From IMG/VR virus record IMGVR_UViG_2778261162_000007: a DNA stretch of 47,425 nt; one strand, written 5' to 3'. The stretch is from a virus (lineage: Duplodnaviria; Heunggongvirae; Uroviricota; Caudoviricetes). Of the stretch, positions 1-14,360 are shown piece after piece (position 1 is the first letter of the stretch; each line of letters opens with the position of its first letter). Both the position numbers and the translations under genes were made by a program. The notes under the pieces are model-generated. The model searched no databases. It had not been told where the DNA came from and saw only the letters and a list, made by a program, of their open reading frames with translations.

Positions 1-1236
1 CTACGATAACCGCGCATTCAACATGGCTATCTGTTCGTCGTTCATGTCATCAATCCACATACCGTAAATTTCATACACCATCTGCGCAGTTTCATGCCCC
101 ATTTGGCTGGCTATAAATGCCGGGTTCGCTCCTGCCGTCAACAGCCAGCAGGCAAAAGTATGCCGCGTATGGTACGGATTACGGCGGCGAATACCAGCAC
201 GTTTTACTGCTGCATTCCACCTTGCCCCCAAACTGCTTACCGAGTAATAAGGTTTCTGTTTTCCGTTACACACCCTTGGCATGAAAACAAAATGCAGTTT
301 TTGCTTTTCGGTTCTGCCGTACTCCCGATGATAAAAGGTGATTTCGCTTTTGCGATGATGCCCGGTCAGTTTGTATTGCTCCTTCAGTGCTTCAAGAGCA
401 GGCTGCAGTAATGTTACCGTCCGGATCCCGGCATTTGTTTTTGGGGGACCGAACATATCAAGTATCGTCAGGTTTCTTCTGACATTCACAATTCCCTTCT
501 CGAAATCCACATCCTCCCACGCCAGAGCTGCCAGTTCCCCGTGACGAAGCCCGGAGTAAACGGCAAATTTCCACAAGTTTTGGCTCTGTCCTTTTTCACT
601 TTCCATTAATGCATTGAATTCTGTTTTAGATAACGGGTCAGGCTTTATTCTGTTTCGCTGTAATTTTTTTACTCCTTCAAATGGTTTGGTTGATATAAAT
701 CCCGACTGATACGCAAAACGTAACAGCGAACAGAGCAGGGCGATATAGTTATCAACTGTGCGCACGGTTCTTCCTTTTTTGTTGGATCTTGGATTATCCA
801 GGTAAAGCGTTTCTCCATGCAGCAGTTCATTCCGGTAGTTTAAGATATCGCTATAACGAATATATGATATCGGGGTACTTTCACAAATTATTATTCTGAG
901 TGTTTTTAATTGTGATTTCGTTTTCTTCATTGTGTTTGTTGTTAACTCTGTCTCTTTAATTTTTGTCCAGATATCACAAAGCTCCCCGAACGTTTTTATG
1001 ACTCTCGTTGTCACCATTTTTGCCCCAGTGCTGGACTGGGGAAAACGTCTTAAATACTCAAATTCACCGGAGTTTATTTCATGAACTATCAGCGCTCTTA
1101 AATTTCCGGCCTTTTTAATATTACTGTTTGTAATCTCCCAGCCTTTTAATGTTTCCCGACATCGTTTTCCTCGAAACATGAACCAGATGCGAATGTTTCT
1201 ACCTCTAATCTCGACACCTGTTGGTAATTTAGACAT
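1..1236 (-). CDS. intR: Prophage integrase, tyrosine recombinase (Rac IntR-like)
   Basis: 411-aa minus-strand ORF; C-terminal region has tyrosine-recombinase-like R..H..R..Y context (HTRHTFACWLL...YEIYG); N-terminus MSKLPTGVEIRGRNIRIWF matches my recollection of Rac IntR; the window begins exactly at its stop codon. Confidence 0.88.
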   Translation of the reverse strand: MSKLPTGVEIRGRNIRIWFMFRGKRCRETLKGWEITNSNIKKAGNLRALIVHEINSGEFEYLRRFPQSSTGAKMVTTRVIKTFGELCDIWTKIKETELTTNTMKKTKSQLKTLRIIICESTPISYIRYSDILNYRNELLHGETLYLDNPRSNKKGRTVRTVDNYIALLCSLLRFAYQSGFISTKPFEGVKKLQRNRIKPDPLSKTEFNALMESEKGQSQNLWKFAVYSGLRHGELAALAWEDVDFEKGIVNVRRNLTILDMFGPPKTNAGIRTVTLLQPALEALKEQYKLTGHHRKSEITFYHREYGRTEKQKLHFVFMPRVCNGKQKPYYSVSSLGARWNAAVKRAGIRRRNPYHTRHTFACWLLTAGANPAFIASQMGHETAQMVYEIYGMWIDDMNDEQIAMLNARLS

Positions 1237-1237
1237 A

Positions 1238-1453
1238 TCATGAGTCTTTGATAAACTGATTTATCTTTGGATAGTTGTACCAGATAATCCCTCGTTTGCT
1301 GTCTGGCTTACCTAAAGGAGATACTCGTTTGAAGTGGAAGCCCTCCACCCAACAGTTCTGGCGATATGCTTCAATTTGTCTGGCCCCCAGACCAGTGCGA
1401 AGCATCAGGCCGTATTCAACCATCCACTCTTCATTAAAGATTACTTGTGCCAT
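1238..1453 (-). CDS. Excisionase-like protein (YdaQ/XisR-like)
   Basis: Small ORF immediately upstream of and co-oriented with integrase; internal start [11 protein letters not shown] chosen; position and size typical of Xis. Confidence 0.6.
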
Positions 1454-1552
1454 CGCATCACCTCTGGCAGGCGCCAATGTTAGACTGAAATTGACGCCTG
1501 ATGTTGATTATTTATAATCAGCTATGAAGTTTTAATTTGAATACAATGCAAT

Positions 1553-1741
1553 TCACGAGGACTGAAGTTTCTCGCAATTAAAATTTATCAGTTTTACTTT
1601 CTGCTCTCTGGAAACGCCTGCTTCTTTTTTACCTGAGAGCATTTTTTCGCATTCTGATTTCGTTAGTTTAGATTTTGAATATCTTGTCCAGTTAGTAGGA
1701 GTGCCACCTTCCTTTTCAATTGTAGCGGTAATTTTATACAT
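1553..1741 (-). CDS. YdaC-like small prophage protein
   Basis: Start MYKITATIEKEGG preceded by GGAGG Shine-Dalgarno; the ORF track offers a longer form to 1813. Confidence 0.45.
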   Translation of the reverse strand: MYKITATIEKEGGTPTNWTRYSKSKLTKSECEKMLSGKKEAGVSREQKVKLINFNCEKLQSS

Positions 1742-1940
1742 GAACGCCTCCATTAATATTTTCAGTGGTTCGTTTATTCCATCTTTCGAGCGCTTCTTTT
1801 TCACTTCCACCATAGCCAGTTCGGGATTCGCATCCGTTGCATTTTGCCCGGTAATATCCTGAAATGTCTTTCACCGTTACTGATGGACAACCACAAAACG
1901 GACATGGTTTAACATCGTCATATCTCAAAGTTTTTGTCAT
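1734..1940 (-). CDS. ralR: Lar/RalR-family restriction-alleviation protein (Cys-rich)
   Basis: MTKTLRYDDVKPCPFCGCPSVTVK...CNGCESRTG, a four-Cys zinc-ribbon-like motif; position between ydaC-like and recT as in Rac. Confidence 0.65.
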   Translation of the reverse strand: MTKTLRYDDVKPCPFCGCPSVTVKDISGYYRAKCNGCESRTGYGGSEKEALERWNKRTTENINGGVHV

Positions 1941-1984
1941 AAAAACTATCTCACGTTGGCGGTGCATTACACCGCCGGGCTGGA

Positions 1985-2818
1985 TTATTCTTCTGGATTA
2001 TCGATTACACTGTATTCCCCGGCTATAACCGATATGTCGTCTGGATTAATTGTTTCCACCTCTTTTCCATCCATCGATACTGCACGCTGGATTTCAATAG
2101 ATACCGGCAGATACTTGAACAGTTTTCGTATCACTGTCTTTTTGGCCATGTCTTCAAAGTGTTCATCCCAGATGGACGACGCCCCTTTTGACGCTGCGTT
2201 TTTTGCCGCCTTGCTGTGTGTGTCGCGAACTTTTTCTACCTGTTTGCGGGTCATGACTTCAAACTGCACTCCTCCGTCTTTCAGTTTTGCAACAGCATAG
2301 ACATGGGTTATAGGGGCATCTTCGTTTTCACCGGGACGATGAACCAGTTTTTCATCAAGGCCAAGTTCATAGCTGAATTCATCACATTCACGGACAACAC
2401 GAGCTGACAGACTGATGATTTGACCTGATCGACGGGCAAGGTCGATCATGCCGCGATAACCGATGATCAGCTGTACGTTCTTCTTACCGTTTTTTGCTTT
2501 TCCGTTGCCGAACGGTAGCAGATATGCATGACCGAGGGCGCTACCTGGCTCAAGTCCGAGCTGTGAACACTGTACGATGGCACCGATAAAACTCGTCGAG
2601 TCACAGTTTCTTAGTTCCGGTACTTTACGGATTTCTGTTGTAGCAATGCGGATCATGCGTTCCGCTGTCATGTGACGTGGCAGAGCTGCTGCCAGTTGCG
2701 CTTTCATTGCCGGGCTGTTAATCACGCACAGCACATCCTTATCGTTAACTGCTGCTGGTGCACGGTTTCCCTGAGTTTTTTGCAGATCGGCTTTTGCGAT
2801 AGGTGGTTGCTTAGTCAT
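1985..2818 (-). CDS. recT: RecT single-strand annealing recombinase
   Basis: [21 protein letters not shown]... recognised as RecT; start overlaps the recE stop region. Confidence 0.9.
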
Positions 2819-5462
2819 TTGCATACTCCTTAGCCCAGCGGGGCAGTGATAACGTCTTAATAGCTGGCCATTCATCGGTATTTAGGCAGTCAGCCAGGGT
2901 CCGCAGATTGCGGTGATATTCCTGCTGGCCTGCCAGTTTTGCTTCTTCGCCCATCATGAAAATCTCAACCGGATAACGTCCGCATTCAACAGTTGTGCTG
3001 GCAACCAGAAAAACGAAAGTTGGCTGCACACCAAACTGTGCTTCATAACCGTCACTGTAGAATGCATCCTGAACGTGATAGCGGTAGTCGTAATAAGCCG
3101 TTTTGAATCGTTGAATATCCGCTGTGGTTTTCACGTCCATGATCCAGTGAAATTCAGGAATAATTTTGTCCGGACGGCACCGACACAAAATTCCTGTTTC
3201 CGGATCTTCCCAGTAAATTGATGATTCAGCGTGTCCGGCGCTTTCAACAAGCCATTGCCCCAGCGGCAAAGCCATAACGCTTTGATACATGAGTTCAATT
3301 TTCCGGCCTTCTTCCGCAGTGATAACCGTTTTTCCTGTGCTTGCGCATTCCATCAGAAACGCTTTCTCTTCTTCTTTTCCGGCGTTTGTACGGCGGTTAA
3401 ATTCAGGTGCTACGATAAAGCGGTTACTGAATTCTTCCGGTTCAAGTACCCGGCAGTGGAAAGCGGTTCCTAAATCGAGCGTTTTTGTCTTTGTAGTGTC
3501 CACGGGGGCATTTTTACGCCACAAATACAGTGCCGGAGTATCAGCAATGTCATCGAGCTGAGACTTACTGACACCGGGACCCGCGTGGTAATTCTCATTC
3601 GAAATTCCGTAATAAATACCTGGCTCTATGTCTTCTACGATTACGGGATCTGCGACTTCGCCAGTTTCATCACTGCAATCGCGATGCGGATCGCTGCCAG
3701 CATTCTCATTGTGCGGATGTTCAGCGCCTTCCATTTCCTCCGGATCTTTTTCCTTAGCTTCAACCTGATTCTCTTCACCGAATGTTTCCTGGTATGTTGC
3801 GTCGCCCATCACCGCACCACAGTCAGGGCAGTTATCCCCGCCAGTCTGACCGCAGGCATTGCAGACTATTTCCGGTTCCTGTTGCACTACTGGCTCAGGT
3901 TGTTTCGCATCCGGGCTGATTTTTTCCGTTTCTGGCTGGTTCTGGTACACAGAATCGCGAGTCTGGATCCCCTTAACCCATTTCGGATCGTTCGGGTCGC
4001 TAATTCCGTCAACAAATTCACCACGTGATGCAGCAAGCAATTTATCGGCATCGACAGGATTTTTTGATGGAATGTTTTTCCGGGCTTCCTGGAGTTCTGC
4101 CCGCAGTTCCTGATATTTCGCATCAACAGAATTTACCTGTGACTGAGCATCCAGCGGCTGCGTGTTCTGATGATGTTCAGTTGCATTCGGTTCCACTGTT
4201 TCAGCCGTTGCCTGTTCATCTGCCATTGCGCCAGATGGTTGTGGTTTTTCTTCATCGTCCTGTTTTCCTTCTTCTGTTACTCGCTGCGGCATCGGGGCCG
4301 AGGAGCGACCGCAGGCAATATCCACGATTTCCGGATCAGGGTTGGCATGATCGGTTTCAGTCAGTACTTTGTTCAGATATTCAGTGACGTGTGCGGGGAT
4401 GACCTCGATCCCAATTGGTGCTTCTTTTACGGACGCAACCACGATGGCGCGGGAATAATCCAGCCCACCAGGCATGGTGATGAATTTGTCGCGGAAAACA
4501 GAAAAGGGTGGTTTATTTTCAGCGATAATTTCCTCGACACGTTTAGCGTGTGCCGGATGAAGGTTATAAATGTCCACGTCCATTGAACGAGCCAGTACGC
4601 CAGTGGCTACGTCGCGCGCCAGTGACGTCAGATCGTGAACGAAACCTTCGCCGCGATCGGTGAGGTTCCCGCCGCCAGCATTAGCGCCGGAAGCCGTGCG
4701 CGTGATGCGTGAAACACGATTTCCTTTTCGCCATTCTTTTGTCAGAAGACCGCGATCAATGTGTTCGGTATCCAGCCAGGCTGAAATGAAATTCTTAAAT
4801 TCATAGGGCTGATGTTTTTTCGTGATAGAGAACACTGCCTTAATTGCATCAGTCAGGCGGAGCAGGGCGGCATTATCCAGAGTTGTCGGTTCTGCCATGC
4901 TGCGTATGGCCAACAGCAGATTCTGGACATAGCTGTTTTCCTGATCCATCTCAAGAGCAGTAATGTGTTTGCGTTGTTCACGGGTGGCATGATGCAGGTA
5001 TTTCCGATCCCCGGCTGCATACGTAAAAATGTGCAGAAGACGCTGTGTGAACCGCAAAGTGGCTACAGAGACTTCGCAATCCTGGCAATCCTCGTGGGCG
5101 TCTGCCTGCGCGTTTTCTTCCTGGCCTCCCGCCAGTTCTTTGGTTTCTTGAGCATTATCCTGGTGGTGAACGTCGTCTGGCGCTGCTCCCGGTTTTAGTT
5201 CCCAGGTCATTGAGTCTTTGCTGAGTTGATAGCGTTCACTCCAGGTAAAATCGATCTCACCTTCAGGGGGAAGGTCATTAACGACAGGAAAATTCGTGGC
5301 AACAGGTTTAAAATAGCTGCTCAGTTTTTTACCTGACTTAACGAGCAGGTAGTCCAGAGTGGCACAGGTCGATTCAAAATCGTCGCTTGCCCACAGGACG
5401 ACGTCAGGTTCACCGGATGATTTTTTCGCTTTCCGTAACAGGAAGAGTGGTTTTGTGCTCAT
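2811..5462 (-). CDS. recE: RecE exonuclease VIII (YqaJ-like C-terminal nuclease)
   Basis: 883-aa ORF directly upstream of recT; long acidic linker and C-terminal exonuclease region typical of RecE. Confidence 0.88.
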
Positions 5463-5563
5463 TGTTTTTTAACCTCAACTCAGATTAAAATTCGTTTTGT
5501 TCAGTGAATGATCTTGCCGGATACACACTGTTCATAGCCTGCGTATGGCGCAGGCTATTTCTT

Positions 5564-5839
5564 TCAGATTTCACCGCCTAATTTCATTGCAATCAGAGTT
5601 GCCAGAAATCCGGCTTTTTTTTCTGCGGGCAGATTCTTTCCGATGTGAACCAGGCACATTTTTGTGACACCTTCATCAAGTGTTTTTACGTTGCCTGATG
5701 GACCGTCGATATCAACCACAGTGAATGGGGTTTCTTTATTTTCTGTTTTAATCACGTAGCCAATACGCTTTCCTTCCAGATTAACCTCGTGAACAATGTC
5801 ATCGGTAGTTACAACAGTGGCTTCATAATTGGTAATCAT
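5564..5839 (-). CDS. racC: RacC-like protein
   Basis: MITNYEATVVTTDDIVHEVNLEGKRIGYVIK...; AAGGAG RBS upstream of the internal start. Confidence 0.6.
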   Translation of the reverse strand: MITNYEATVVTTDDIVHEVNLEGKRIGYVIKTENKETPFTVVDIDGPSGNVKTLDEGVTKMCLVHIGKNLPAEKKAGFLATLIAMKLGGEI

Positions 5840-5913
5840 GTTTTTCTCCTTAATTAAGGTTGAGCGAATCCCTGCCATTGCTGGCATAAATTCAGTTTCG
5901 AATAGTCAGTTAA

Positions 5914-6084
5914 TTAAAGTTCGTGTGCCATCTGGTCTTTTTCGGCACAACTTTCACTACAATATTTTTTCATTTCCGTCGTTGGGATAACTCCACGCAT
6001 GAAATGAAGTGGTCTTTTAATACTTTTGCTTTCTTCAATTTCTTTATTGCAAAGGTGGTAAGCACATTTTATTTTCTTAGTCAT
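5914..6084 (-). CDS. ydaE: YdaE-like Cys-rich small protein
   Basis: Hand-translated minus-strand [21 protein letters not shown]...KYCSESCAEKDQMAHEL, about 56 aa and absent from the ORF track (below its size cutoff); paired Cys motifs. Confidence 0.5.
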   Translation of the reverse strand: MTKKIKCAYHLCNKEIEESKSIKRPLHFMRGVIPTTEMKKYCSESCAEKDQMAHEL

Positions 6085-6305
6085 CACCATGACTCCGCCT
6101 TTACAGGTAAACCATCACGACCGAGGAAGACTTTAATCATGCAGTCAGTAATGCATGTTTTTGTAGTCAGGTTACGAATATAAAGTTTTCGCTTTTTAAT
6201 ATTGTTTGCCGAGGCAATATATGTCCGGCCTTCATGAAGAATATAGTCACCAGGAGTCACACACTGACGTGGTATTTCATCAGTTCCGAAGTGATGTGCA
6301 ATCAT
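6084..6305 (-). CDS. kilR: Kil-family cell-division (FtsZ) inhibitor, KilR-like
   Basis: [46 protein letters not shown]...; GGAGA RBS; location upstream of recE as in Rac. Confidence 0.7.
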
Positions 6306-6725
6306 AATTATCTCCATTTTTACAAATGAACTTTGTTGATGCGGTGCCTAGTGCCTCCAGGTGACTGCAACCAGTTAACAATTACAGTCGGCTTTCCCAC
6401 CCAAACCAATAAGGACTAACATGACTTTTAACTGTGCCGCGTGCGCTTAGCCGCATTCACCGCATCACAAAATTCACTTTAAAAAGGGCGGACATCAGTC
6501 GAACTTCAAGAAAAAACTGATGCCGCCAAGACTACACACAGCAGTGTTGTTATCCACAACCGGAGGCGCACTCCCACCATTTAAATTTAACAGACAAGAC
6601 CGACTCTTTATGGATATCGGAAATGCGACTTCGTGTTGTGCCCGGTTTTATTTCACCACCTCCGGGCTTTGGTGGTTTCTGCTATACCCCTACAGCGAGA
6701 ATATTGAATTAATCCAAATAATGGA

Positions 6726-6878
6726 TTAGCAAGTATTTCTGGCAAGCCAGCGACGTGCGCCCGTTTCAGTTTTGAATGTCTTGCTTTTGGTATACGTCAT
6801 GGCGGTGAACGTTCCATCCTGGTTGGGGAACACGCCGCACACCAGGGATTCGTTATTGCCGAGGTCGATTTTTTGCAT
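6726..6878 (-). CDS. YdaF-like small protein
   Basis: Hand-translated ORF MQKIDLGNNESLVCGVFPNQDGTFTAMTYTK..., about 50 aa. Confidence 0.4.
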   Translation of the reverse strand: MQKIDLGNNESLVCGVFPNQDGTFTAMTYTKSKTFKTETGARRWLARNTC

Positions 6879-6888
6879 TTTTCGCACC

Positions 6889-7023
6889 TCACATTTTGTT
6901 GTTGCGGATAGAGGCTTCTGCCTGCCAGAGATCCCAGTCGTTGCTGCGTAGAGCCTGTACAGCCTGGCTGTAAGTGATATCGCAACAATCCATCAAATAC
7001 TGAACTACTTCGTAATGCACCAT
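6889..7023 (-). CDS. YdaG-like small protein
   Basis: Hand-translated ORF MVHYEVVQYLMDCCDITYSQAVQALRSNDWDLWQAEASIRNNKM, 44 aa. Confidence 0.4.
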   Translation of the reverse strand: MVHYEVVQYLMDCCDITYSQAVQALRSNDWDLWQAEASIRNNKM

Positions 7024-7215
7024 CTTATCTCTCCCCTTAACGCCGGGTGGCGGAACTAACTGCTGCACTGCAAAATTTGAATCCCGCCGTCATGTTCATA
7101 CGCCTCGGGCTGGCTACTTAACCCCTTACCACTGCCTGGTAACTCGAAGTATTGCCCGGCGTTCTGTGGGGCGGGGTGGGTGGTATGCTGGAACTATAGG
7201 TAATGCCTAATTGAT

Positions 7216-7237
7216 TGTCAATAGGCTATGCCTAATG
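7216..7237. promoter_or_regulatory. 22-bp sequence TGTCAATAGGCTATGCCTAATG, left copy of a perfect inverted repeat flanking racR
   Basis: Exact reverse-complement match to 7859..7880; lies downstream of the racR stop. Confidence 0.5.
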
Positions 7238-7330
7238 TTTTGGGTGTAACCTAATAGGTGATGGCGACAGGAGAAAGTGATGGGGGGTTAAATAACGGAA
7301 TCCAGGAGTTTTCCGTCAGACCATATAAGT

Positions 7331-7807
7331 TTAAGTTCCAGTTTTTGTGATGTTCTGGCTTTTCCGTTCAGATTCTAGAGCTTTCAGATACTTACCCACT
7401 TTCATTTCCATCGCTGCTATGTAGGCGCGAACATCGTGGTCAACCCAATCTGGTTCTGTAGCATTTCCAGATAACAGGAAAGCTACAATCGCTCTTATTT
7501 CATCAGAGGCTGCTTGATAAAGGTTGTTTATATCTAAAAGTTCACTTTTTGTATCTGAATTGGTGGGGGTTGGTATGGGGTATTCGTTAAGCCCCCAATG
7601 CTCTGGACCAACAACATCAGAAAAGAAACGCCATAATTCTGGAAGTTTATCTTTACTTATGGAGCCTTTCTTAATCCAGTCATAAATTGATGGTGGTTGG
7701 ATTTTGAAGTGGCGTGCGACCTCCGCCTTTGATTTGACGGATCCCGATGCGATTTTTTTGTTAATGGCCTGCTCTATCGCTCGGCCTAAGTCTTTACCAC
7801 TAAGCAT
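7331..7807 (-). CDS. racR: Prophage repressor RacR (HTH)
   Basis: 158-aa ORF MLSGKDLGRAIEQAINKKIASGSVKSKAEVARHFKIQPPSIYDWIKKG... with HTH; divergent from a cro-like gene. Confidence 0.85.
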   Translation of the reverse strand: MLSGKDLGRAIEQAINKKIASGSVKSKAEVARHFKIQPPSIYDWIKKGSISKDKLPELWRFFSDVVGPEHWGLNEYPIPTPTNSDTKSELLDINNLYQAASDEIRAIVAFLLSGNATEPDWVDHDVRAYIAAMEMKVGKYLKALESERKSQNITKTGT

Positions 7808-7930
7808 TGCTTAATATTCTCCTATGCTCATTGCATTAGGCAATCCCTACCTTTATCGCATTAGGCATAGCCTATTGACATTTATGTTAGGCGTCGCCTA
7901 ATATTTCTGTGTGTTTTTGGAGTTCATTCG
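7808..7930. promoter_or_regulatory. Divergent racR/ydaS promoter-operator region
   Basis: Contains the right copy of the 22-bp inverted repeat (7859..7880), a 15-bp palindrome TTAGGCGTCGCCTAA (7887..7901), repeated ATTAGGC half-sites, and TTGACA (7875..7880) followed about 18 bp later by TAATAT. Confidence 0.6.
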
Positions 7931-8227
7931 ATGAAAAAAGAGAACTATTCATTCAAGCAAGCTTGTGCTGTTGTCGGTGGGCAATCAGCAATGGCTAGGC
8001 TTTTAGGTGTATCACCTCCAAGCGTAAATCAATGGATCAAAGGGGTACGTCAATTGCCTGCCGAGAGATGTCCAGCAATTGAACGAGCAACAAGAGGTGA
8101 GGTTCTGTGCGAAGAGCTTCGTCCTGATATTGACTGGTCATATTTACGACGTTCGGCATGTTGTTCGCAGAATATGTCAGTGAAGCAACTAAATGACAGT
8201 AACAAATCCTCATTTGATCATACCTGA
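7931..8227 (+). CDS. ydaS: Cro-like HTH regulator YdaS
   Basis: MKKENYSFKQACAVVGGQSAMARLLGVSPPSVNQWIKG... HTH; divergent from the repressor. Confidence 0.85.
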   Translation: MKKENYSFKQACAVVGGQSAMARLLGVSPPSVNQWIKGVRQLPAERCPAIERATRGEVLCEELRPDIDWSYLRRSACCSQNMSVKQLNDSNKSSFDHT

Positions 8228-8249
8228 AACATCAAGAGGCAAATGATTC

Positions 8250-8672
8250 ATGAAAATCAAGCATGAGCACATCGAATCAGTGTTGTTTGCCCTGGCAGCC
8301 GAAAAAGGGCAGGCATGGGTAGCCAATGCAATTACTGAAGAATATCTGCGCCAGGGGGGCGGCGAATTGCCCCTGGTTCCAGGCAAGGACTGGAACAATC
8401 AGCAGAATATCTATCACCGTTGGTTGAAAGGTGAAACGAAAACGCAAAGAGAAAAAATTCAGAAGCTGATCCCAGCAATTCTGGCAATCCTTCCGCGCGA
8501 GTTGCGTCACCGACTCTGCATCTTCGATACCCTGGAACGCCGTGCATTACTGGCGGCGCAGGAAGCGTTAAGTACGGCAATTGATGCGCATGATGATGCA
8601 GTCCAGGCCGTTTACCGGAAAGCGCATTTCAGCGGCGGTGGTTCGTCCGGCGATTCTGTTGTTGTTCATTAA
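8250..8672 (+). CDS. ydaT: YdaT-like protein (putative toxin/CII-like partner of YdaS)
   Basis: 140-aa ORF MKIKHEHIESVLFALAAEKGQAWVANAITEEY... immediately downstream of ydaS. Confidence 0.8.
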   Translation: MKIKHEHIESVLFALAAEKGQAWVANAITEEYLRQGGGELPLVPGKDWNNQQNIYHRWLKGETKTQREKIQKLIPAILAILPRELRHRLCIFDTLERRALLAAQEALSTAIDAHDDAVQAVYRKAHFSGGGSSGDSVVVH

Positions 8673-13682: not shown

Positions 13683-14204
13683 TGAAAATTCCTCAAGTTG
13701 GAGAGTTCTGGAACATTAAGGCGAGGTGGCCGTAATGCACCATCTGTAATCTTTTGATACTGACGTAATCGGGCCTGATGTGCAACGCCTTGCAAGTATG
13801 TAACTCATTGAAAACGATCATTTTTATCTATTGACATCAAATGGCAAACTGTCATTGTGCGGCTATGGCAAGTGGCAAATGCTTATAAATCATATGGATA
13901 TAAATAGTACAGAAAGAGTTGTTTTCTCTAGGATATGAGTATACGCCCAATGCTGATTGGTTGAATTTTGTTCTTGTTTTAAAGGGTAAGAGTTTAAAGT
14001 GTTGGCAGTGATGTATTGGATAGTTAGAATTGCTGTGGGTGCTTGAGGCTATCTGCCTCGGGCATGATCACCAAAGGTAGATAGAGAAAAGCCCCAGTTA
14101 ACATTACGCGTCCTGCAAGACGTTTAACATTAATCTGAGGCCATATCTATGCGACACATAGAGATTAGCCTCTTACGGACCGAAAGGTCAAGGAGAAGCA
14201 GGCT

Positions 14205-14360
14205 ATGAAGCAGCAAAAGGCGATGTTAATCGCCCTGATCGTCATCTGTTTAACCGTCATAGTGACGGCACTGGTAACGAGGAAAGACCTCTGTGAGGTA
14301 CGAATCCGAACCGGGCAGACGGAGGTCGCTGTCTTCACAGCTTACGAACCTGAGGAGTAA
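14205..14360 (+). CDS. Hok/Gef-family type I toxin (51 aa)
   Basis: MKQQKAMLIALIVICLTVIVTALVTRKDLCEVRIRTGQTEVAVFTAYEPEE closely resembles Gef/Hok; AGGAGAAG RBS; sits in a 1.1-kb AT-rich non-coding island. Confidence 0.85.
   Translation: MKQQKAMLIALIVICLTVIVTALVTRKDLCEVRIRTGQTEVAVFTAYEPEE

Follow-up and report, generated by a model that had tools for sequence, protein, structure and literature searches.

The repressor gene racR of the Rac prophage appears, from the arrangement of its flanks, to lie between two outward-facing early promoters, the site downstream of racR and the ydaS promoter forming a pair that corresponds to OL/PL and OR/PR of phage lambda. We put the probability that the left-hand site is part of a RacR-repressed PL promoter at about 0.88. 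A PL/OL element is apparently new for Rac, and its kind is that of the textbook lambdoid prophage; this layout went unrecognised in an earlier sequence-only reading of the same DNA.

The stretch analysed (the window, 47,425 nucleotides) is a Rac-type prophage of E. coli, and the context genes were derived from its own open reading frames. The repressor gene racR (7331–7807, minus strand, 158 aa) is divergent from the Cro-like gene ydaS (7931–8227, plus strand; Pfam YdaS_toxin and P22_Cro), which is followed by the open reading frame ydaT (8250–8672, plus strand). On the other side lies a leftward early operon with recombination, kil, xis and int functions (1–7023, minus strand; ydaG-like, ydaF-like, kilR, ydaE, racC-like, recE, recT, ralR, xis-like and int), every gene from 7023 down to 1 being on the minus strand. 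Over positions 6850–8250 identity is 100% with strain EC11 and about 97% with K-12-like genomes. Away from this fully identical stretch around racR, the window is mosaic relative to EC11 (L337; 1–666, 1922–3642 and 12135–14181), differing at the int end, in part of recT/recE and in a 2-kb cargo segment, and it is collinear with the EC11 record only at about 5.2–12.1 kb and 14.2–46.4 kb. Because of these mosaic differences it represents a related prophage and not the one of EC11, the counterpart of which encodes an ATP-dependent nuclease, a cytosine methyltransferase and a gene of the anti-CBASS Acb1 family. When the whole window was searched against Rfam at gathering thresholds, only RalA and sok were found, both away from the repeat: the RalA sRNA (218 bits) lies opposite ralR and the sok RNA (101 bits) directly upstream of a 51-aa Hok-like ORF (14205–14360), marking two type I toxin-antitoxin systems at 1557–1735 and 14037–14360, respectively.

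Inverted repeat and operators around racR

Positions 7216–7237 (TGTCAATAGGCTATGCCTAATG) are the 100% reverse complement of 7859–7880 (22/22 nt). The arms are separated by 621 nt, racR is the only gene between them, and in the whole 47-kb window they form the sole perfect inverted repeat of at least 16 nt within 3 kb, confirming the earlier observation that a perfect 22-bp inverted repeat brackets racR. The right arm (7859–7880) is made up of three flanking bases, an operator (OR2) and the -35 box of the ydaS promoter PydaS (PR; 7875–7904, plus strand, TTGACA-18-TAATAT), in agreement with the overlap with a TTGACA -35 element noted before; primer extension and mutagenesis of the -10 box have shown that TTGACA/TAATAT is the single ydaS promoter (PMC9638921). 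The left arm (7216–7237) too carries TTGACA, which had been missed, on the minus strand and with TATAGT 17 bp beyond. It consists of this -35 box, an operator (OL2) and three flanking bases. The predicted promoter, PL (7193–7221, minus strand; -35 TTGACA at 7221–7216, 17-nt spacer, -10 TATAGT at 7198–7193), matches the sigma-70 consensus at 11 of 12 positions. At the sequence level, each operator cluster is therefore overlapped by an outward sigma-70 promoter, of which PL is predicted and PR confirmed (PMC9638921), and the arms read as mirror images of one block of operator plus -35 box, belonging to two promoters that would fire outward from racR.

DNase I footprinting has defined the RacR half-site ATTAGGC and operators of the form (T/A)TAGGC-N3-GCCTA(T/A) (PMC9638921). 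A search for TAGGC-N3-GCCTA with at most one mismatch returned five matches in the window, all of them in the two racR flanks (starting at 7197 and 7222 on the left and at 7837, 7862 and 7888 on the right), compared with an expectation of 0.73; none of 100 shuffled sequences reached five. At two mismatches the motif is at background level in the window (12 observed, 13.3 expected), with the exception of the match at 7801–7813 over the racR ATG, which is a published operator. The additional half-sites that the sequence-only reading had seen beside the arms are present, yet they are full 13-bp palindromes TAGGC-N3-GCCTA and not half-sites.

On the left, OL2 (7222–7234, TAGGCTATGCCTA) is a perfect operator core that abuts the PL -35 box, and OL1 (7197–7209, TAGGTAATGCCTA; one mismatch) is a RacR-type core inside the PL spacer that shares 2 nt with the -10 box; no third left operator was found at up to two mismatches. 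On the right, OR1 (7888–7900, TAGGCGTCGCCTA) is perfect and lies in the PydaS spacer, OR2 (7862–7874, TAGGCATAGCCTA) is perfect and abuts the PydaS -35 box, OR3 (7837–7849, TAGGCAATCCCTA) has one mismatch and corresponds to the operator adjoining the -35 box in other genera, and OR4 (our name for the published O3; 7801–7813, TAAGCATTGCTTA) is a weak operator over the racR ATG (PMC9638921). Paired operators are spaced 25–26 bp apart, and the centres of OL and OR are about 640 bp from each other. A repressor gene with clusters of the same palindromic operator on both sides was found in Rac and also in distant relatives. A further palindrome, ACCTA-A-TAGGT (7249–7259), in which RacR-like half-sites occur in reversed order, lies between OL2 and the racR stop codon; it is kept in E. 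coli-type loci and was not seen in other genera.

Binding of RacR to the racR–ydaS intergenic region has been demonstrated by EMSA and ChIP-qPCR (PMC5700373), and in DNase I footprinting PydaS is protected first, at the lowest RacR concentrations (PMC9638921). Since the footprint covers PydaS, the right arm lies in an experimentally bound region, and the left arm carries an identical copy of its operator. We infer from this layout that RacR occupies OL, that PL is an active promoter and that its transcripts start near 7186.

The exact match of the arms is incidental and not the conserved feature. In K-12-like Rac prophages the arms are 21/22 identical, the one difference being at the centre of the operator, which is not contacted; in 80 close Rac loci taken from viral contigs, arm identity ranges from 19 to 22 of 22, being perfect in 27. 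In other genera the arms agree at 15–19 of 22 positions, in essence those of the half-sites plus the -35 box, and the positions of promoter and operators are fixed. The OR of E. coli has four operators, at -6, -42, -67 and -93 from the racR ATG, versus three, at -6, -41 and -66, in other genera (including the upstream regions of L007, L008, L010 and L019). The E. coli lineage carries an extra 26-bp unit of operator plus TTGACA that now supplies the -35 region of ydaS, and the ancestral -35-proximal operator (7837–7849, now at -42) no longer has its TTGAC. What makes the arms nearly identical is that this extra unit, presumably the product of duplication or conversion, shares its consensus operator with OL2.

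Leftward operon and predicted control by RacR

Under the arrangement proposed here, transcription from PL would run leftward into ydaG-ydaF-kilR-ydaE-racC-recE-recT-ralR-xis-int. Each arm would act as a RacR operator (TAGGC-N3-GCCTA, with the extended half-site ATTAGGC) fused to a TTGACA -35 box, and on the left OL2 abuts the -35 box and OL1 fills the spacer up to TATAGT. In a lysogen, cooperative binding of RacR dimers to OL1 and OL2 would exclude RNA polymerase and keep the leftward operon silent; loss of RacR would release PL and PR together. We infer repression of PL by RacR from the identity of the left operator with the footprinted OR2 and from the leftward derepression that follows RacR depletion (PMC6765115; bioRxiv 10.64898/2026.09.06.749655). 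When RacR is lowered, ydaG, ydaF, kilR, ydaE and racC are up about 40- to 70-fold or derepressed, and further leftward genes likewise rise (PMC6765115; PMC11014345; bioRxiv 10.64898/2026.09.06.749655). Zygotic induction of the rac recombination genes has also been described (PMC5917428). The one mismatch in OL1 counts against a RacR-repressed PL, as do a few loci (Klebsiella sp. R390, phage VW-6S and some Pseudomonas contigs) whose available DNA showed no left-hand module. The leftward derepression could in principle also be an indirect consequence of RacR loss, either through read-through from racR, which is normally stopped by Rho inside the gene (PMC4150792), or as a secondary effect of YdaS/YdaT.

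In the stretch from the racR stop codon to OL2, no terminator passed the terminator scan and only a weak hairpin is present (ACGGAA-N10-TTCCGT followed by TATTTAA; 7290–7320, minus strand); in phage KpF5 the corresponding position is occupied by a strong intrinsic terminator. The absence of a terminator passing the scan 3' of racR is consistent with the reported dependence on Rho for termination inside racR (PMC4150792). The scan did flag 7222–7234 and 7884–7904 (plus strand) as terminator-like hairpins followed by T-rich tracts, as would be expected if the palindromes acted as RNA or DNA structures, namely by ending transcription of racR or convergent transcription, or by pairing the two arms in a long-range RNA stem. 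We regard this reading as highly improbable: the stems are only the 5-bp operator palindromes, the flagged hairpins lie on the other strand from racR and PL and are about as many as shuffled sequence gives (2 versus 1.5), no known transcript spans both arms, and in Klebsiella phage KpF5 a distinct, proper intrinsic terminator stands directly ahead of OL.

The E. coli RacR has no S24 domain as judged by Pfam, suggesting that it is not induced by RecA-mediated cleavage. In Achromobacter and Pigmentiphaga, a RacR-type N-terminal DNA-binding domain (52–74% identical) is joined to a Peptidase_S24 domain of the LexA/CI-like autocleavage type (Pfam; L011:2501-3598, L012:2501-3406 and L020:3001-3852), and the same ATTAGGC operators are used. 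Repressors of Pseudomonas phages (about 283 aa, annotated as CI repressor) have the same RacR-type N-terminal domain together with ATTAGGC operators. Co-variation of operator sequence between OL and OR was considered and rejected, as Pseudomonas-type domains still use ATTAGGC half-sites, which amounts to conservation with the domain.

Conservation and boundary of the left-hand module

Loci with a RacR-type DNA-binding domain were gathered from reference genomes, sequenced phages and viral contigs; scanning viral contigs by alignment recovered close Rac copies only, and distant repressors were used as queries on these contigs. Of 92 non-redundant loci, 84 have a distal module of the form operator–TT(G/T)ACA–operator downstream of the repressor and on its strand; none of the 92 has it on the opposite strand, on the cro side or in control DNA. 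Its range includes Escherichia, Mixta, Morganella, Proteus, Klebsiella phage KpF5, Pseudomonas phages, Achromobacter and Pigmentiphaga. In Mixta, Morganella, Proteus, Achromobacter, Pigmentiphaga and KpF5 the same palindromes occur downstream of the repressor, paired 25 bp apart, and, read outward from the repressor, the layout operator–TTGACA–N6–operator–(T/A)ATAnT is shared by loci ranging from Escherichia to Achromobacter, Pigmentiphaga and KpF5; the Pseudomonas phages D14H and SC_8 have the same left module with TTTACA. When seven divergent distal regions were aligned, the only invariant columns were the operator half-sites, the TTGAC of the -35 box and one T of the -10 box, and the flanks were unalignable. 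A motif-free comparison of intergenic with downstream DNA identified an exact inverted repeat of at least 13 nt in 48 of the 92 loci, and in 0 of 92 when an equal length of cro-side DNA was used as control.

The left module is also kept where the C-terminal half of the repressor is a Peptidase_S24 domain (Achromobacter and Pigmentiphaga), where at least one gene intervenes between the repressor and the left site (1.2–3 kb), and in KpF5, in which a clear intrinsic terminator lies just before OL. No recognisable left module was found in the 1.8–4.5 kb available for L009 (Klebsiella sp. R390), L021 (phage VW-6S), L186, L187, L214 and L216, where it may be further off, diverged or lost. Absence of the distal copy from otherwise identical prophages had been named beforehand as a sign against a regulatory role. 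Such prophages were looked for and not found: racR occurs in 1086 of 5426 complete E. coli genomes, the same 1086 cover at least 80% of a 1.4-kb query spanning both flanks, with the left flank present in all of them, and the distal operators are present in 80/80 close Rac loci from viral contigs.

These data bear on the idea that the left copy is a non-functional leftover of an OR duplication or gene conversion, or a chance match, which we consider very unlikely. The extra 26-bp unit of operator plus TTGACA at the E. coli OR does show that copying between or within the clusters occurs, but across Enterobacterales, Pseudomonas and Burkholderiales the left module keeps its functional positions unchanged between flanks that have diverged, was never lost in the 1086 racR-bearing E. 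coli genomes, and belongs to a motif cluster for which the chance expectation is far below the number observed. Promoter geometry and this deep conservation strongly support two suggestions made in the sequence-only reading, that of an extra promoter downstream of racR and that of identical operator-like sites on both sides of the gene.

To the left of the predicted PL, the sequence is shared far more widely. Thousands of E. coli genomes match only positions 7032–7187 of the window, to the right of which they carry unrelated repressors, for example an HTH protein, a repressor of the PaaR2 toxin-antitoxin type or a LexA-like protein, each with its own operator sequence on both sides. Homology breaks at about 7187, which is 29 bp outside the left arm and at the predicted PL start. 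As similarity ends at this point, the operators mark the edge of an exchangeable immunity module, and the break is an ordinary lambdoid mosaic junction. The term cassette boundary, proposed earlier for the repeat, holds loosely in this sense but not in the sense of mobile-element ends.

Terminal inverted repeats of a mobile or invertible racR cassette would account for a perfect 22-nt inverted repeat around a single gene and for the point, about 30 bp beyond the left arm, at which resemblance to prophages carrying other repressors is lost. We give this possibility very little weight. No transposase or invertase lies between or beside the arms, the flanking bases (TGAT and TTTA) form no target-site duplication, and the arms are wholly accounted for by operator and -35 box. 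In other genera arm identity falls to 15–19/22 with promoter and operator positions fixed, spacing and enclosed genes differ between loci, and an inverted or excised form was found in none of the 80 + 1086 loci. Moreover, ydaS, which is part of the same immunity module, lies outside the right arm, and the mosaic break is the usual lambdoid module junction.

The PL leader (7024–7186, minus strand), with a C-rich 5' end, is common to prophages of other immunity types and is about 85–95% conserved in thousands of E. coli genomes beside unrelated repressors. In its second half it contains a small ORF (MNMTAGFKFCSAAVSSATRR, followed by a stop codon) with a GAGG ribosome-binding site, which in L002 and L016 runs in frame into a DUF1391 (YdaF/YdfA) protein of 76–78 aa in total. 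Since the leader ORF is in frame in these two loci, the annotated start codons of DUF1391 proteins may be too far downstream, and in Rac the ORF is a truncated remnant upstream of ydaG. Much of the conservation of the leader is explained by this small ORF, which is an N-terminal extension of the DUF1391 protein in relatives. A put- or nut-like RNA in the leader was considered and rejected (MFE z-score -1.9, no covariation in five homologues), and a search of 6850–7350 against Rfam gave no match even at E ≤ 1.

Looping and comparison with known systems

RacR elutes as an octamer in size-exclusion chromatography (PMC11014345). Tentatively, and with somewhat less than even odds, such an octamer might bridge OL and OR in a loop of about 640 bp that encloses racR, tightening repression and tuning racR autoregulation as CI does in lambda; this would add to a PL/OL pairing and not replace it. 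Looping and autoregulation had been suggested in the sequence-only reading as well, plausibly in view of the octamer. Besides the octamer itself, it is favoured by the presence of only two operators at OL, where an octamer would leave half of its DNA-binding domains free, by operator pairs 25–26 bp apart, as in lambda, and by the precedents of lambda and CP-933P (PMC8630535). On the other hand, the distance between OL and OR varies, from 616–654 bp in enterobacterial loci to about 1.2–3 kb where genes intervene, a third OL operator was not found, and the authors of the octamer study ascribe the octamer to the four OR operators alone (PMC11014345). A more elaborate version appears rather unlikely as a whole: here a preformed octamer would bridge OL and the strongest OR operators in an unusually tight loop of about 640 bp round racR, coupling the silencing of the lethal kilR and ydaST operons to racR autoregulation, OL-bound RacR would block read-through from racR into kilR beside the Rho terminator, and the near-perfect 22–24-nt arm identity in E. 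coli would mark a lineage-specific duplication that added the fourth OR operator in keeping with this geometry.

E. coli K-12 has few essential transcription factors, and RacR, which is being actively studied, is among them; the target considered for it in published work is the racR–ydaS intergenic region alone. Control by RacR of a second, conserved promoter would directly explain the derepression of kilR, recET, ydaFG and xis/int, the zygotic induction of rac and the RacR octamer, and reporter or binding studies without the left site may overlook part of the circuit. Outside Rac there is nothing new in principle, as the layout is the textbook lambdoid one. The published RacR operators O1–O3(4) are intergenic and share their recognition sequence with the left site, and the right arm is within the footprinted region (PMC9638921, PMC5700373). 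These studies cover the intergenic region only, and in the accessible RacR papers that were searched we found no mention of a site downstream of racR, of a left operator or of looping.

The closest general likeness is to lambda, where OL/PL and OR/PR/PRM surround cI: as in Rac, the repressor gene lies between clusters of palindromic operators of about 17 bp with one recognition sequence, and the clusters overlap outward sigma-70 early promoters. The likeness extends to a cro-like gene on the right, to recombination, kil, xis and int genes on the left, to operator centres about 24–26 bp apart and to the repressor octamer reported for RacR. Rac differs from lambda in that its OL has two recognisable operators instead of three and its OR four in E. 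coli, in that no N/nutL system was identified, and in that no rex-type genes lie between OL and OR. Because none intervene, OL and OR are only about 640 bp apart in Rac, as opposed to about 2.3 kb in lambda. Unlike lambda CI, RacR lacks an S24 autocleavage domain, and the two repressors are folded differently in their C-terminal part (PMC11014345).

CP-933P of E. coli O157:H7 (PaaR2), a cryptic lambdoid prophage that is a sister of Rac, likewise has a right arm of the ydaS/ydaT type. Its left promoter, PL933P, has -35 and -10 boxes identical to those of PR933P and matching operators, and is repressed by the repressor and by YdaS (PMC8630535). CP-933P (L017) has the PL leader in common with Rac, and we found that it has its own 12-nt mirrored block of operator plus TTGAC; its repressor and operator sequence are unrelated to those of Rac, and a toxin-antitoxin pair lies between repressor and OL. 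The left promoter of CP-933P has been tested with reporters (PMC8630535); PL of Rac is a prediction from sequence. The cryptic prophage Qin offers a further parallel: like Rac it has a short repressor without S24 (dicA) and operator sets on both sides (bioRxiv 10.1101/2023.04.14.536235). Repressor family and operators differ between Qin and Rac; in Qin, dicCp is PR-like and dicBp PL-like, and this left promoter drives a cell-division inhibitor operon (bioRxiv 10.1101/2023.04.14.536235).
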